From Nitrosopumilus sp. (lineage in GTDB: Archaea > Thermoproteota > Nitrososphaeria > Nitrososphaerales > Nitrosopumilaceae), in NCBI GenBank assembly GCA_965223425.1, contig OZ245003.1:2048001-2112000 (forward strand): a stretch of 64,000 nt of DNA, read 5' to 3'. Each line of letters starts with the position of its first letter. Within the stretch, counting starts at the first letter, position 1. This document shows, piece by piece, positions 11,976 through 17,988 of this stretch. The notes under the pieces were generated by a model. It saw only the letters and a list, made by a program, of their open reading frames with translations, did no database searches and was not told the origin of the DNA. Both the position numbers and the translations under genes were made by a program.

Positions 11976-13271
11976 GTGAATTTACTTTCTATTGGTGGTT
12001 CAGATCCTTCATCAGGGGCAGGCATTCAAAGTGATGTCAAAACATTTTCTATGCTTGATGCACATTGCTTAACTGTAATTACTGCAATTACTAGCCAAAA
12101 CACTACAAAGTTTGGTAAGAGTGAGCCAGTCTCACAAAATGCCCTAAAAAACCAACTAGATTCAGTATTGTCAGATTTTAAAATTGATGGAATAAAAATT
12201 GGGATGGTGTATGATTCACAAATCATCAAAACATTACATCATAAATTAAAAAAATTAAAAATTCCCATAGTTGTTGATCCTGTAATAAAATCAACAACAG
12301 GCGGGTCACTAATCAAAAATTCAGCCATCAAAGATTTTCAAAAATTCATCATTCCCCTTGCTGCGGTAATTACGCCAAACAAATTTGAGGCCGAAACTCT
12401 ATCAAAAACCAAAAATAATACAAAAAATTCGCCAAAAAAAATTGCAAAAATAATTCAGAAAATGGGGGCAAAAAACGTAGTAATTACCGGAGTTGATCAA
12501 AAAAATAACCAGATATCAGATTTTGTATTAGAGAAAAACAAAGAATACGTTATTTCCGGAGACAGAGTTCCTAAAACGAACCATGGAAGTGGATGCAACT
12601 ACTCTGCGGCCATACTTTTTGCACTTGTAAAAAAGAAAAACATGCTAGAGTCGATGAAATTTGCAAAACAATTCACTTACAATTCCATAAAAAACGCAAA
12701 AAAGATTGGAAAAGGGGTTGCCATAACAGGTATTCAAGGAGACAGTATCAATTCACACCTATCAGATGCAGTTAACAAATTTGTCGAGATTAAAAATATC
12801 TATAAAAATATTCCAGAATGTCAAACAAATTTTGTAAATTCCAAACAAAAACCAAAATCAATAAAAGACGTTTTAGGTATTTCTGGAAGAATTGTAAAAG
12901 CTGGAAAACAAGTAATGGTTGCAGGCGATTTAAGATATGGAGGCTCAAAACATGTTGCAACAGCATTACTTGCAGTTAATAAAAAATTTCCACAAGTATG
13001 CTCAGCAATAAACCTCAAGTATCAAAATTCCACCATATCAAAAATTAAAAAAACAAAATTAGTTGTTTCGAGTTATGATAGAAGTCAAGAACCCAAAAGT
13101 GTGAAAGGCAAACGTTCCACCATAAAATGGGGAATGAAAAATTCAATTAAAAATTTAAACAAAGCACCTGACATTGTGTTTCACAAAGGAGATTTTGGAA
13201 AGGAGCCCATGATCATAGTTTTCGGCGAGACTCCAAATAGTGTAATCAAAAAAATTTTAAAGATTGTTTGA
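11976..13271 (+). CDS. thiDN: bifunctional HMP/HMP-P kinase - thiamine-phosphate synthase ThiN
   Basis: GSDPSSGAGIQSD, TPNKFEA, HGSGC; C-terminal IPECQTN, GGSKHVA, GKEPM. Confidence 0.92.
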   Translation: MNLLSIGGSDPSSGAGIQSDVKTFSMLDAHCLTVITAITSQNTTKFGKSEPVSQNALKNQLDSVLSDFKIDGIKIGMVYDSQIIKTLHHKLKKLKIPIVVDPVIKSTTGGSLIKNSAIKDFQKFIIPLAAVITPNKFEAETLSKTKNNTKNSPKKIAKIIQKMGAKNVVITGVDQKNNQISDFVLEKNKEYVISGDRVPKTNHGSGCNYSAAILFALVKKKNMLESMKFAKQFTYNSIKNAKKIGKGVAITGIQGDSINSHLSDAVNKFVEIKNIYKNIPECQTNFVNSKQKPKSIKDVLGISGRIVKAGKQVMVAGDLRYGGSKHVATALLAVNKKFPQVCSAINLKYQNSTISKIKKTKLVVSSYDRSQEPKSVKGKRSTIKWGMKNSIKNLNKAPDIVFHKGDFGKEPMIIVFGETPNSVIKKILKIV

Positions 13272-13382
13272 TTCCAGTCACCCAGAACAGCATATGCAGT
13301 TAAACTCATGTAAGCCTTGGGTTCTCCCATACGAAATCACCCCTTATCCTACTGCGGACCATTCTCAGTGTGCTTTGCTGAA

Positions 13383-14457
13383 TCAGGATGTTTCTGATTT
13401 GTCTTGCATCTTCTTATACTTTCTTTGCGTCAACTCATGATTCTGTGTGCGGTATTCCTCCATGTTTGTTAGCATGTGCCAGATTATCTCAAGCATCATC
13501 TGCCTTGCAGCTGCTATTCTTGCCTTTTGTTTTCTTCTTCTCTTTGCGATTCTTGAATAAAATGATTCCATCCTTGGATCAAATCGTATCGTGGTGTTTG
13601 CAGCCTCCACCTGCATTGCGCAGCCATGCAGAACCACGTTTTGTTATTCCGCCGCCTCCTTTTTGCGTCTCTCCGCTGTCCCTGTGCGATGGTGCAAGTC
13701 CCGCATATGAGACGAGTTTCTCTGCTGTTGCAAATCTGTTAATGTCAACTATCTCGGATATTATTGTCAGTGCCGTGACATAGCTTATTCCAGGCATTGT
13801 CATGACTAGTCTTGCCCTTTCATCCTCGTTGCTAATTGCAGCAATCTTTGTCTCAAATGTGTCAATCTGTTTTTGATTCATCTCAATGTTTTCAAGATAT
13901 GCGTCCATTGCCATCCTGTCAACTTCTGTCAGACTGATTTCATGCAGCCATCTGATTCCCTTCTGTGAGAATGTCTTTATTGTCGGTTGGGTGTAGTCGT
14001 ATTTTGCAAGTATTGCATAAATCATGTTTTTGTGTTTTGAGACACTGTGTACGCGATTCAGTCTTGTTCTTACCAGACTGCGCAGGTCCCGATAGTATTT
14101 TTCTGGTACAAATGACTCGTACACCATGTCAGATCTTAGCAGGTCTGCCAACACGTCTGAATCGAGCTTGTCGTTTTTGAGTTTTGCCTGTGCTATTATC
14201 TTGGTCTTTGCAGGGTGTGCAAGAACAGTATCAATGCCGTTATCCTCCAGTGTGTCATGCAGTCTAATCCAGTAGTTGGCAGTTGATTCGCACACTGCTT
14301 GCATGTCTTTGCCGTATGTCTTTTTGACGTGTCTGATAAAACCCGTTATTCCACGTGTGGTGTTCTCAAAGCTTGACTGTTCCAGCTTTTTTCTGGTATC
14401 TTTTTTTACTGTTGCAACGCACCTGTTTTTGTGAACGTCAATTCCTATGCTGATCAT
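13383..14457 (-). pseudogene. IS110 recombinase, frameshifted near 13610
   Basis: GIDVHK, CESTA, KNDKLD, PGIS, YAGLAPS..SG; C-terminus (VEAAN...ARIAAAR) in another frame. Confidence 0.88.
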
Positions 14458-14493
14458 ATTATCACCTCCTTTCTGATCAAATTGCCTGATTCT

Positions 14494-14596
14494 GCGGAAT
14501 GCTCCCATTCACCATCATCTGTGTGGTATTTTGTTTTCCGCTCACTTTGAGTTAGTCTGTGAAACGCCCTTGTACATGGCAGTAACCCTTCAACTC
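14494..14596 (+). ncRNA. candidate bridge RNA of IS110 element 1 (antisense to recombinase)
   Basis: Loop closed by GCGGAA/TTCCGC holds CTCCCA (= target flank 13324-29); loop closed by GAGTT/AACTC holds GTCTGTGAA (GTCTGT = element end 14650-55). Confidence 0.6.
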
Positions 14597-14714
14597 TCAG
14601 GCCCAACAGTAACGATACATCACAGGATATAGAAAAGATTTCGTATAACGTCTGTCAAGTTATCGGGCGTTTAGTCTAAATCTTTTACCTGTAAAGGGTC
14701 GGGACATGGGTTCT

Positions 14715-15367
14715 GTAACAAATTGGGGACATGAATACGGATCTTCTCTGAATTGAAAATTTTCTCTTTCTCCACGTTAACTGTCGGGTGTTTTTGAGGC
14801 TATGATTCCTATTTTGATCAGTTTTGCCTTTAGTTCAGTTGTTGTCATTTTATTTCCCTTCATGGAATTACATGATTGGCATAATAGTTGTTTGGTACGT
14901 GTTCACCTGATTTAGCTCAGTTTTACATATATTTTACAATCTCGGCCACATAGCCAATATTCTTGTTCTTCCAAGTGGTGACACACGAGAATAGATTCCC
15001 CATCCATTCCATGGTATCCACAGATCTCAGCCCGCCACGGATCTTTCTGTGCACTACAATCTCGCGCAATCCGCGCTCGGCGGCATTGTTGGTAGGCGGG
15101 ATGCCGGGGTCTGATACGAACCGGAACATGTCAGGCGCCGCCCTGCTCAGCTTTTTCATGAAACGCTCCAATATGGGATTATCCGAATATTTCATGATCA
15201 GCTGCCTTATCCGCCGCAACAGTCTGCAGCAGAGATCCGTTCTGTTTCCGGCCGCACCGCATCCGTCCCTGTACATTCTTTTTAGCACATCCCGTACGCA
15301 CCTGCATTGCGGGTCGTCATATTTGACGCACAGGTCACGTGCCTCGCGCAGTATGTGCGACCAGCAC
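14715..15367 (-). pseudogene. IS66-family transposase, 3' remnant with probable terminal repeat
   Basis: CWSHILRE...PPTNNAAERGLR...RKI; GTAACAAATT at 14715 resembles the IS66 end at 34597. Confidence 0.8.
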
Positions 15368-15414
15368 TAGCTTGAACACATGATAACCACCTCGTCGTAG
15401 ATGTAGTGATGAAT

Positions 15415-15515
15415 CGACCCCTGTATGCATATGGGCCTTGCGCCCTTGAGCTTGAATGGGGCAGTCCGAGCTGCTGTGTGACTGGGCCTTGCGCCCTGAT
15501 AGGTGTATGCAGCTT
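15415..15515 (-). ncRNA. candidate bridge RNA of IS110 element 2 (antisense to recombinase)
   Basis: Two loops, each with the identical hairpin TGGGCCTTGCGCCCT (15432-46, 15483-97), followed by AGCTTGAA (= left junction 15369-76) and TAGGTGT (= right junction 16772-78). Confidence 0.65.
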
Positions 15516-15553
15516 CCGATCCGTCAAAGATCCGAAAGGAGGTGATAGAAAGG

Positions 15554-16648
15554 ATGAGCAAAGGAACAATCAGCATAGGAATAGACATTGGAAAGAGAAA
15601 ATGTGACGTATGCGTCATGGACTGGAAGGGAAAGGTTTTGCATACTGGCCAGTATCAAAACACCGTCTCAGATGCAGACAGATTCGCAGAACAGACGGCA
15701 CTCAGGTATTCTGCCAGAAGATGTCAGGCAGCATGCGAGACGACGGGCAACATGTGGAACATCACATACGGCGCCTTTGAGAGACATGGAATCGACATAA
15801 AGCTTGCCAACACCTACAAGATGGCAATAATTGCAAAGACGGGAAAGAAGACAGACAAGATTGACGCACAAAAGATAGCAAGCGTATTGAGGATGGATTC
15901 AATACCAGAGTGTTATGTGCCGTCAGCTGACACAAGAGGAGTCCGGGCCATGGTCAGACAGAGGATCAGGACCGTACAGGACAGGACACGCGTGATAAAC
16001 CGCGTCCACAGCCTGCTTGACAGATACGATGTGAAAATCGATGCCTCTGAGATGTATGCCATAAAGGCCGTAGAACAGATGGAGTCTGCAAGCCTGGGAT
16101 CCGTACATGACGAAATAGTACCGAGTCAGTGTGCCCGGCAGATAAGGAGCCTTACCGAGGAGATAAGACACATGGATGAACACCTGGAAAAGGAGGCATC
16201 GCTAAACGAGGATGCAAAACTTCTTGCCAGCATGACTGGCATGGGAATCTACTCTGCACTGCTGCTTGCCGTCAAGATAGCCGACATTGTCAGATTCGAG
16301 ACCCCAAAGAATCTCGTCTCATGGGCAGGCCTGTGTCCGGCGATACGCCAGTCAGGCGACAAAATCTACATGGGCAGAATCAAAAAGCTTGACACCAACA
16401 GTCTGGTCAACTGGGTCATGTGCGAGGCTGCAAACACGGCGGTAATTCATGATACTAGAATGAAGGCAGTTTACGAGTCTTCCAAGAGAAGACATGCAGG
16501 CAAGCATGCACTTGCCATAGTGACTGTCGCCAACAAGATGATAACCATAGCGTGGCACATACTCAAGACCAGGACACCATACGAGTCCCGAAACGAGGGA
16601 CTGTACAAACGCAAGCTTGCCAAGATGGAAAAGGCACGCCAGAGGTGA
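15554..16648 (+). CDS. IS110 recombinase, apparently intact
   Basis: GIDIG, CETTG, KTDKID (DEDD) and RQSG catalytic Ser; AGGAGGTGA upstream. Confidence 0.9.
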   Translation: MSKGTISIGIDIGKRKCDVCVMDWKGKVLHTGQYQNTVSDADRFAEQTALRYSARRCQAACETTGNMWNITYGAFERHGIDIKLANTYKMAIIAKTGKKTDKIDAQKIASVLRMDSIPECYVPSADTRGVRAMVRQRIRTVQDRTRVINRVHSLLDRYDVKIDASEMYAIKAVEQMESASLGSVHDEIVPSQCARQIRSLTEEIRHMDEHLEKEASLNEDAKLLASMTGMGIYSALLLAVKIADIVRFETPKNLVSWAGLCPAIRQSGDKIYMGRIKKLDTNSLVNWVMCEAANTAVIHDTRMKAVYESSKRRHAGKHALAIVTVANKMITIAWHILKTRTPYESRNEGLYKRKLAKMEKARQR

Positions 16649-16774
16649 TTGGTATGTGTCATCCCACCAAATTATCTCTCCAGCGTTAGCTATAAATCTT
16701 GTACCGTACAAGTAGGCACGGATCGGAAATACAACTGGGATGCGTTGCCGCAACACGTCCGGTGGTTAACATAG

Positions 16775-17988
16775 GTGTTGCATAACACGCCTAAAATCTA
16801 CCACGCAGTTTAAACTGACCAACAAACACACATGTTTCTGACCGAAAAAGCTTTAGATCATGACAGCATGCTCAAAGTGTTGACCGACAATGCAAAGTAC
16901 GTCCGGCGGGGTGCAGAGCTGGCAGTACAGTACAACCCTGACTGGAACTGCGAGGTAAGGCAGGCCAACTGCGGCAAGGAGGAGGGGGCACCGTTCCAGT
17001 ATGCAGACACCATGATCATATGACAGCCGCACTGAGAACCGCCCTCGGCGTTCCATTCAGGCAGCTGTCCGGGATGGCAGATAAGATGCTTGAGGGACAC
17101 GACTCGCCGCACCATACCACGCTGTGCAGAAGAATGGAGAAATTTGACATTAGCATTCACGGCAACACCATACACGTTCATGACGCATCCCGGCACGTAA
17201 CCCTGATGGCCGATGCCACCGGACTCAGACAGTGGAACCGCGGAGAATGGATACGCGACAAGTGGAAGGCGGTGGTGTTGCGCAAGGGATATGTCAAGAT
17301 GCACCTGCTGGCAGATGCGGACACCGGCATGATACTTGCTGCAGTAGTCACAGACGACAGAACCGGCGACTCGCCGGTACCGCAGGATCTGCTGGATCAG
17401 GCAGTGGCAGAGCCGTTTGCCAAGGCCGGGAAGGACGATGCGAGAAAGAGGCCAAACATGCTTGCAGACGGAGTCTCTCCGCTTGCCGGTTCGGCAGGCG
17501 GCAAGGAGGAGGAAGAAGAAGAAGAAGTGCCAAGTGCCAGCCTGCTTGCAGACGGCGCATATGCATCCAAGAAAAACATGAATGCGTGCAGGAAGAAGGG
17601 CATCAAGCCGCTTGTGCCACTCAAACCATGCTTTGCTGAGAGCGGCAGGGGCGATGACGGCAAGGAGTGGAACCTGGCCGTGAAAGAGCAGCTTGGGGGC
17701 AGCGCAGACATGCACGTCAAGGGACTGACAGTGGAACAGAAAAAGGAGAACAGAAGATACTGGAAGTCTACTGTAGGGTACGACAAAAGGTGGAGAATAG
17801 AGGTAATCATCTCCGCATTCAAGCGAATGTTCGGAGAGCATCTGTTCTCACGCAAGTGGGAGAGCATGGTAAGAGAGGTAAGGATGAGGATTGCCATGTA
17901 CAACCGGTGGGTGGCAGCAACAATGTAGGGGAGCAGGTGCATGGATCCTGGAATGAACGGGATGTGGTCAGGCCGAGTTATGCAACAC
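16775..17988 (+). mobile_element. IS5-family element (IS903-like) with frameshifted transposase (16832-17023 + 17020-17928)
   Basis: TIR GTGTTGCATAAC/GTTATGCAACAC; DATG, LADGAY, RWRIE..FKRMFG. Confidence 0.85.

Follow-up and report, generated by a model that had tools for sequence, protein, structure and literature searches.

Guide RNAs of the IS110 family of insertion sequences have been described for elements such as IS621 and for the IS1111 elements. According to Durrant et al. (2024), the left guides of the bridge RNA base-pair to the DNA's bottom strand and the right guides to its top strand, the core included. Therefore, every guide equals the sequence of the strand that runs 5' to 3' into the core. 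In the seekRNAs of IS1111 elements, as described by Siddiquee et al. (2024), the complement of the top strand lies 5' of the match to the bottom strand, which is the reverse of the order in IS110. The same study states that the subterminal inverted repeats (sTIRs) of IS1111 elements are usually 11-13 bp long, with a left extension of 7 (or 6) bp and a right extension of 3 bp beyond them. The noncoding region (NCR) is said there to lie "usually" downstream of the recombinase gene, and exceptions are listed: a few relatives carry the NCR upstream (ISMtsp17) or have a long NCR on either side of the gene (ISHvo10, ISAcp5). The present work concerns two elements, E1 and E2, in a stretch of 64,000 nucleotides from an ammonia-oxidising archaeon, Nitrosopumilus sp. 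(assembly GCA_965223425.1, contig OZ245003.1, positions 2,048,001 to 2,112,000). The whole stretch is referred to as the window, and positions are those of the window unless a contig of the genome (C1) is named.

E1, on the minus strand, and E2, on the plus strand, are very probably IS1111-type elements of the IS110 family, each with a guide RNA encoded on the sense strand in the 5' untranslated region (5' UTR) of its recombinase gene. The 2.64 Mb genome, which consists of two contigs, was searched for copies and holds many copies and fragments of both elements. The ends were set by comparing occupied junctions with empty (unoccupied) target sites in this genome. For E2, the junction alignment contained 11 left-end-bearing and 5 right-end-bearing copies or fragments, and four empty sites were available, one for the copy at C1:273-276 kb and three for the copy at C1:2133-2135 kb. 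For E1, ten unoccupied ends of the target element were compared. A second E1 copy, 99% identical, lies at C1:785183-786537, along with several fragments. In both elements, insertion is site-specific: the single core of the empty target becomes one copy at each junction, and nothing else is duplicated. The core of E2 is TG. That of E1 is AG (AGA is shared), and since the core is followed by an A at either end, the ends of E1 are ambiguous by one base. Outside the repeats the extensions are asymmetric, TG+AACAC on the left and AGG on the right in E2, AG+ACGTT and GGG in E1. The right junction of E2 also agrees with contig ends at 16776/16777 in three DNA runs, and loose ends finishing in TAGCT stand before 16776 in X1, X3 and X6.

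These ends alter the interpretation of the locus. A sequence-only reading of the window had noted that short loop sequences recur at the element junctions, and every repeat is where it was reported (CTCCCA at 14502-07 and 13324-29, GTCTGT at 14555-60 and 14650-55, TAGGTGT at 15500-06 and 16772-78, and AGCTTGAA at 15449-56 and 15369-76). Its cores, CA and TAG, do not agree with the empty sites, and its ends lie 2-5 bases away from those given by the other copies and the empty sites. Since the ends were misplaced, the two loops were interchanged. Positions 13324-29, taken for the target, are the core plus the right end (RE); positions 15369-76, taken for an element end, are the left target and core plus two bases of the left end (LE). 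The sequence at 16772-78 comprises the RE end, the core and one flank base.

E2 interrupts the left terminal inverted repeat of an IS5-like element, here called ISx, at five bases from the tip. Another E2 copy occupies the corresponding position of a related miniature inverted-repeat transposable element (MITE). E1 has inserted into a different repeated element, four bases in from its end. The natural targets are the termini of other insertion sequences. The copy at 15375-16775 is the only uninterrupted full copy of E2 in the genome. Three other full-length copies (C1:850532-853072, 2133301-2135839 and 273452-276311) are each broken by insertions of 1.1-1.5 kb within the recombinase gene, which leaves the copy in the window as the one E2 that could be autonomous.

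Relatives were collected from public genomes. Within the order, 201 genomes were searched and 29 of them contained matches. When GTDB species genomes were scanned, tblastn confirmed 135 relatives, and the 80 best loci were used; nearly all loci kept are labelled as coming from metagenome-assembled genomes of Nitrosopumilaceae or other Nitrososphaerota. With four copies from the genome itself, 84 sequences entered the guide counts for the E2 family. A strict pattern was passed by 52 of them, and 30 of these passed a first filter (a right end with at most three mismatches in the inverted repeat). L111, L115, L153, L161 and L163 were then dropped, as their putative right ends were not CAT plus three purines, while L160 and L165, which have CAT plus three purines and four mismatches, were added and the box of L107 was parsed again. 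Both ends were parsed in 27-28 insertions of the E2 family. E1-type matches occurred in 12 of the 121 genomes of the family (E <= 1e-40). In this set, 21 loci were examined; L196, L197 and L203 are without the donor motif, and L176 failed the LE pattern. The window's own E1 copy (L188) was read by hand, and guide matches of the E1 type were read by eye.

The upstream noncoding region of both elements contains two stem-closed loops, which had been seen from the sequence alone, as had the subterminal inverted repeats. In an alignment of 21 diverse upstream regions of relatives, 93.7% of 584 cells pair, and 18 of the 28 base pairs vary on both sides. None of 500 shuffles reached these values for pairing and covariation, and partners slid out of register pair at only 33-48%. 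RNAalifold, run unaided, returned the same five helices (P1 to P5, see the table). Covariation supports the donor arm (P4 and P5) as strongly as the target arm. The helices of E1 were read from its fold and from E1-type relatives, and their layout is that of the E2 family.

On the recombinase-sense strand, the first loop is the target loop and the second the donor loop, and all four guides read 5' to 3' into the core. In each loop, the apical hairpin is preceded on its 5' side by the right-flank complement and followed on its 3' side by the left-flank copy with the core. The right-target box of the E2 family consists of the nine bases between P2 and P3 and complements the top strand of core plus right flank, e.g., GTTATG+CA with TG/CATAAC (L160, L165) and TTAGG+TA with TG/CCTAA (genome G092). 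Over 25 unique pairs, the box matches the right flank at 4.60 of 7 positions, compared to 2.75 after shuffling (0 of 10,000 shuffles reach the observed value), and three alternative readings of the box give 2.3-2.7 of 7. The left-target guide matches the left flank at 4.45 of 6 positions (2.52 shuffled, 0 of 10,000, 22 pairs). Among the E2 copies of the genome, the variants of the first loop (AGCTTG, ATCTTG, AGTTTG, TTTCTG) are the same set as the variants of the left junction, and the loop fits its own left junction in five of nine copies. The covariation of loops with insertion sites in homologous elements, which the sequence-only reading had named as a check on its guides, is present for both target guides. 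In the E1-type relatives, which share this layout and have the core AG, at least five of six bases of the left-target guide match the left flank in 14 of 16 parsed loci. Their right-target guides covary as well (GTAAA+CT with AG/TTTAC in L179, GTAAC+CT with AG/GTTAC in L194), and more compensatory guides are found in L178, L183, L192 and L198. By a rough estimate, a single 6-mer match is not beyond chance; the family-wide covariation is.

The donor guides were compared with the element's own ends. In the E2 family, the right-donor guide matches the LE at 5.08 of 7 positions (4.26 shuffled, 2 of 10,000, 13 pairs), with the variants TGTGT-ACACA, TGTAT-ATACA, TGTCT-AGACA and TATC-GATA. The left-donor guide tracks the RE end across three variants (ATAGG, ATAGA and ATGGA). 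In the E1-type set, right-donor guides covary with the start of the LE in five compensatory variants.

Taken at this strength, the following mechanism may be proposed. A guide RNA (bridge RNA or seekRNA) would be produced from the 5' UTR of the recombinase gene, on the sense strand, and would fold into a three-way junction in which P1 encloses the target-binding arm and then the donor-binding arm. In each arm, an internal loop is predicted to lie between a closing stem and an apical hairpin. With its 5' strand, the loop would complement the right target flank (target arm) or the start of the LE (donor arm). With its 3' strand, it would copy the top strand of the left half-site and the core, the half-site being the left target flank for the target arm and the RE end for the donor arm. 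Recombinase and RNA would then pair the RE-core-LE junction of the circularised element with a target that has the same core dinucleotide (TG for E2, AG for E1), and recombination would leave one copy of the core at each end. The mechanism is an ordinary one: the elements form an IS1111-type clade that has an atypical, upstream RNA position and targets the ends of other insertion sequences.

Another possibility is that the sense RNA is used through its target arm alone, as a short seekRNA, with the protein recognising the donor ends through the sTIRs and the donor-loop matches being incidental. Short RNAs of 70-100 nt with two target matches were the more abundant species in the report of Siddiquee et al. 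(2024), and the long inverted repeats are conserved in the present elements. The shuffle test of the left-donor guide, with four unique pairs, is not significant, and the right-donor guide of E1 is weak. Against this stand the covariation that links the right-donor guide to the start of the LE in the E2 family (2 of 10,000 shuffles) and in the E1 type (the five variants), the left-donor guide following three RE variants, and covariation support for the donor arm equal to that of the target arm. The short-RNA explanation is considered unlikely.

The sequence-only reading had preferred a guide RNA transcribed antisense to, or divergently from, the recombinase gene. As the helices consist nearly entirely of Watson-Crick pairs, they also fold on the other strand, where 91.95% of cells pair, compared to 93.66% on the sense strand. 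Single-sequence z-scores for the two strands are -1.83 and -1.59 for E2 and +1.12 and +1.28 for E1, which does not separate them. Of the 584 cells, the sense helices have 24 G-U pairs and 14 A-C cells; on the antisense strand, the 14 A-C cells become G-U pairs and the 24 G-U cells become mismatches. This count leans weakly to the sense strand, with related sequences. With the ends taken from empty sites, the donor loop of an antisense RNA would come before the target loop, and its four guides would all run 5' to 3' away from the core. Such a polarity is unlike that of IS621 and also unlike that of a control, an ISShdy1-family element from an Escherichia coli plasmid (338-aa recombinase, long downstream NCR, subterminal repeats), the ends of which were set from an empty site in another plasmid. 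The sense NCR of this control contains the right-flank complement GCTATGC, a small hairpin, and then the left-flank copy with the core, TTTCGCGG, and the guide order of E1 and E2 is the same. Turning the DNA around does not convert into-core polarity into out-of-core polarity or the reverse. In addition, the RNA region abuts the recombinase leader, as in IS110-type elements. An antisense guide RNA is consequently very unlikely, and its appeal came from ends set 2-5 bases off; with the corrected ends, the sense strand has the target loop first and guides that run into the core. No new RNA-DNA pairing geometry is needed, because the apparent antisense RNA vanishes with the empty-site ends. The arrangement has already been described for IS1111 elements, so an antisense RNA is not needed either. 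The fallback of the same reading, a sense RNA with inverted pairing, was right in that the right-flank complement is 5' and the left-flank copy 3', and wrong in regarding this geometry as new (Siddiquee et al. 2024). Also very unlikely is that the motifs act as DNA, for example as recombinase-binding sites or remnants of nested ends: they do copy junction sequences and nested insertions are common in the region, but compensatory changes affect 18 of the 28 pairs in the five helices, which points to a selected RNA fold, guides and flanks vary together from genome to genome, and RNA guidance has been shown experimentally in the IS110 family (Durrant et al. 2024; Siddiquee et al. 2024).

Several observations weigh against the interpretation of E1 and E2 as IS1111-type elements with a sense-strand guide RNA. 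In E1, in E2 and in every relative inspected, the NCR lies upstream of the recombinase gene, and not downstream as in the IS1111 description. The placement draws on ends and guide order. That the sense strand is the one transcribed, that the recombinase binds the RNA and that a circle is the intermediate are things we infer from sequence patterns, and the lean of the G-U count to that strand is slight. In the shuffle test of the left-donor guide, 1,677 of 10,000 shuffles reach the observed value, with just four unique pairs. The relatives share ancestry, and therefore the shuffle counts overstate independence. Some guides fit their own site imperfectly: the right-target box of E2 fits the ISx end only with a one-base offset, one DNA base being skipped, the right-target guide of E1 needs one bulged RNA base, and the right-donor guide of E1 is weak, with three of five matches. 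The second guides, which the sequence-only reading had found to match weakly, are those on the 5' strands of the loops; across the families, they covary with the flanks and the LE. Guides misfit their own flanks in the E2 copies at C1:276311, 1871987, 1969491 and 2135839 and, among the relatives, in the L097 group, L126, L190 and L201. Such misfits may reflect off-target events, later exchange between copies, or decay.

The comparison with described groups gives a mixed layout. Both recombinases contain PF01548 (DEDD_Tnp_IS110) and PF02371 (Transposase_20), with Pfam E-values of 2e-28 and 5.8e-18 for E2 and 7.4e-24 and 4.3e-21 for E1, and the two proteins are 31% identical. The noncoding region, with putative target and donor loops that covary with the flanks and the element ends, is what would be expected of the IS110 family in the broad sense. 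Like the IS1111 seekRNA elements ISEc11, ISPa11, ISKpn4 and ISPst6, E1 and E2 have a DEDD recombinase, the C-terminal motif GL-P----S(t)G (GLCPAIRQSG in E2, GLAPSHRDSG in E1), and sTIRs with 7/3 extensions. The sTIRs are 12 bp in E2 (11/12 matching) and 10 bp in E1, perfect and slightly short, and the extensions measure seven bases on the left, with one copy of the core counted, and three on the right in both elements. As in those elements, insertion is site-specific and without duplication, and the guides have the same order, the top-strand complement 5' of the bottom-strand match, and overlap at the core. Unlike in those elements, the RNA of E1 and E2 would lie upstream, in the recombinase 5' UTR, one outer stem closes both arms, and the host is an archaeon. 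The E2 recombinase (364 aa) is somewhat longer than the 330-350 aa quoted for IS1111 by Siddiquee et al. (2024). Over 93% of its length it aligns with an ISShdy1-family protein, but with the solved IS621 and ISCro4 proteins it aligns only in the N-terminal domain, residues 7-176.

With IS621 (Durrant et al. 2024; Hiraizumi et al. 2024), the elements share an RNA encoded upstream of the recombinase gene, within the left end, the target loop before the donor loop, and four guides including the core dinucleotide, of which the left guides copy and the right guides complement the top strand. Unlike in IS621, the guides swap loop sides, the right guide being 5' and the left guide 3', and the subterminal inverted repeats are long (2-3 bp in IS621). 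The IS110 group in the narrow sense (IS621/ISEc21 type) is thus matched in the position of the RNA; its guide order, left guide 5' of right guide, and its repeats, absent or 2-3 bp, differ from the order and the 10-12 bp repeats seen here. The subgroup that the sequence-only reading had proposed, combining IS1111-like sTIRs with an upstream noncoding region encoding a two-loop guide RNA, is supported. ISMtsp17, ISHvo10 and ISAcp5 share an upstream NCR, or NCRs on both sides, with E1 and E2, as far as their description in Siddiquee et al. (2024) goes, in which guide orders are not stated. IS4321 and IS5075, members of the IS1111 family, are known here from the title of a cited work for fixed insertion inside the terminal inverted repeat of another element. 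E2 targets the termini of archaeal IS5-like elements and a MITE, and E1 those of another insertion sequence; the likeness is one of description only. Neither an antisense nor an archaeal guide-RNA arrangement appears in the available text of PMC13626964, where matches were confined to the reference list, or of bioRxiv 2026.08.14.744561, and among 86 bridge-RNA models in bioRxiv 2026.10.21.760802 none is named as archaeal in the text at hand. Literature on IS110, bridge RNA or seekRNA with thaumarchaeal names gave no match joining both, among the matches listed. Tentatively, the Nitrososphaerota elements might constitute an undescribed architectural class, with IS1111 ends and guide order, an RNA in the 5' UTR at the left end, and a three-way junction closed by one stem; this is a possibility to which we give less credence than to its opposite.

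Table 1. Coordinates of the features of E1, E2 and their surroundings in the window; guide RNA features are predicted
Feature	Position	Strand	Basis or remark
Element E2, probably IS1111-type, 1401 bp	15375..16775	+	Junctions and empty sites
E2 left target	15368..15374	+	First 5 bases of the ISx terminal inverted repeat plus core TG (15373-74)
E2 left sTIR, 12 bp	15380..15391	+	11/12 match to right sTIR; extension 15375-79 plus core = 7 bases
E2 guide RNA core, three-way junction	15407..15526	+	Alignment of relatives, RNAalifold
E2 helix P1	15407-16 with 15517-26		Encloses everything
E2 helix P2	15418-21 with 15458-61		Target-arm closing stem
E2 right-target guide box	15423..15431	+	Target loop, 5' strand; covaries with right flank in the family
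E2 helix P3	15433-36 with 15442-45		Target-arm apical hairpin
E2 left-target guide AGCTTG	15449..15454	+	Target loop, 3' strand; copy of left target plus core
E2 helix P4	15469-74 with 15509-14		Donor-arm closing stem
E2 right-donor guide TGTGT	15475..15479	+	Donor loop, 5' strand; complement of LE ACACA
E2 helix P5	15484-87 with 15493-96		Donor-arm apical hairpin
E2 left-donor guide ATAGGTG	15499..15505	+	Donor loop, 3' strand; copy of RE end plus core
Shared leader	15529 and 14478	+ and -	Sequence match at both sites
Shine-Dalgarno-like GGAGGTGA within shared leader	15538..15545	+	Sequence reading
E2 recombinase	15554..16648	+	364 aa, intact open reading frame
E2 right sTIR	16761..16772	+	Followed by 3-base extension 16773-75
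E2 core copy TG, RE side	16776..16777	+	ISx inverted repeat resumes at 16778
Element E1, probably IS1111-type, 1326 bp	13326..14651	-	Second copy, junctions, empty sites
E1 core copy, RE side, AG in element sense	13324..13325	-	Junctions compared with 10 unoccupied ends
E1 right sTIR, 10 bp	13329..13338	-	Reverse complement of 14637-14646; 3-base extension 13326-13328
E1 recombinase gene	13383..14457	-	Frameshift near 13580-13640; start codon 14455-14457; open reading frames of 309 aa and 84 aa
E1 guide RNA core	14484..14602	-	P1 = 14597-14602 with 14484-14489; encloses target and donor loops
E1 left-donor guide	14502..14508	-	Donor loop, 3' strand; copy of RE end ATGGG plus core AG
E1 donor-loop 5' strand (right-donor guide)	14528..14535	-	In relatives, first 4-5 bases covary with LE start
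E1 left-target guide	14557..14563	-	Target loop, 3' strand; copy of TTCAC+AG
E1 right-target guide	14581..14588	-	Target loop, 5' strand; complements AG+AACCC, one extra RNA base
E1 left sTIR, 10 bp	14637..14646	-	Extension 14647-14651 plus core 14652-14653 = 7 bases
IS66-family transposase fragment	14923-15288	-	Pfam
IS5-like DDE gene	17020-17928		Pfam

The region from 13.3 to 18 kb of the window consists of nested insertion sequences, E1 and E2 included. The IS66-like fragment stops at 15367, where ISx begins, and ISx is split by E2, its remainder extending from 16776 to about 18000. The terminal repeat of ISx occurs elsewhere in the genome in at least ten further ISx left ends and about ten MITE ends. 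In DNA-run contigs, IS66-like sequence is carried on past 15367. The contigs of four DNA runs, which are short and broken at repeats, contained neither a contig across the empty site at this position nor a circle junction; three joints were listed in them, with short sides (23-34 letters). At C1:367312-367471, a decayed E2 left end passes into MITE-like sequence just after the left-target guide region. Insertion of a MITE, and recombination of the element's target-mimicking DNA with a MITE end, would both account for this and are not distinguished.

The recombinase of E2 is intact, as had been noted from the sequence alone. In E1, both copies in the genome have an open frame of 309 aa, compared to 335-458 aa in relatives that match over the full length, and the same frameshift is common to the two copies (window 13383-14457; C1:785397-786272). 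Probably, this lineage of E1 was either copied once it had been inactivated or moved by a recombinase acting in trans.

The leader shared by E1 and E2, also reported by the sequence-only reading, is found in both (Table 1). This Shine-Dalgarno-like AAGGAGGTGA leader (15529-15547; 14460-14478) is kept across both element families and their relatives. CACCTC in the left end of E2 (15388-15393) could pair with it, and this pairing might mask translation in read-through transcripts.

Further observations concern the RNA region. In the bin 15397-15537, which corresponds to the guide RNA core of E2, the summed contig word depth in X1 is 701, while the bins on either side have 36 and 24; the corresponding values in X3 are 15,542 and, on either side, 10,170 and 5,388, contig depths not being comparable. 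The peak could stem from additional fragments of the left end, from elements of other organisms that are related to E2, or from another cause. An alternative fold was also considered, with AGCTTG on the 5' strand of a loop capped by GCAG...CTGC and with GTGTGAC as right-target guide. It was rejected because the GTGTGAC segment does not covary with right flanks (e.g., in G092) and behaves as a donor guide. An Rfam scan of 12500-17500 (E up to 1) matched no bridge-RNA family. Its sole match, below threshold, was a CPEB3 ribozyme inside the E1 gene and was taken as chance.

Some relatives depart from the common pattern of junctions. L109 and L110 have AG as the core copy at the right junction and TG at the left, which suggests insertion into targets with a mismatched core. 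L103 and L105 (G038:C1, about 1541281-1544751 and 1325758-1329228; also listed as L079 and L080) are without the first eight left-end bases that are present in L049. Their left junction lies at an internal TG of the left end, and the left-target guide fits the flank in that register, in which the right-donor guide is without a partner.

The clade described here pairs IS1111-type ends and guide order with an IS110-type RNA position and thus bears on the evolution between the two layouts. If the elements do form an undescribed class, guide order and RNA position would be separable traits, and the class would be an archaeal intermediate between the IS110 and IS1111 layouts, specialised on the terminal repeats of other insertion sequences. 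For surveys of bridge recombinases, these mesophilic archaea may offer compact pairs of recombinase and RNA (364 aa and about 120 nt). The clade is well sampled, and its four guides, cores and natural targets can be read from sequence.

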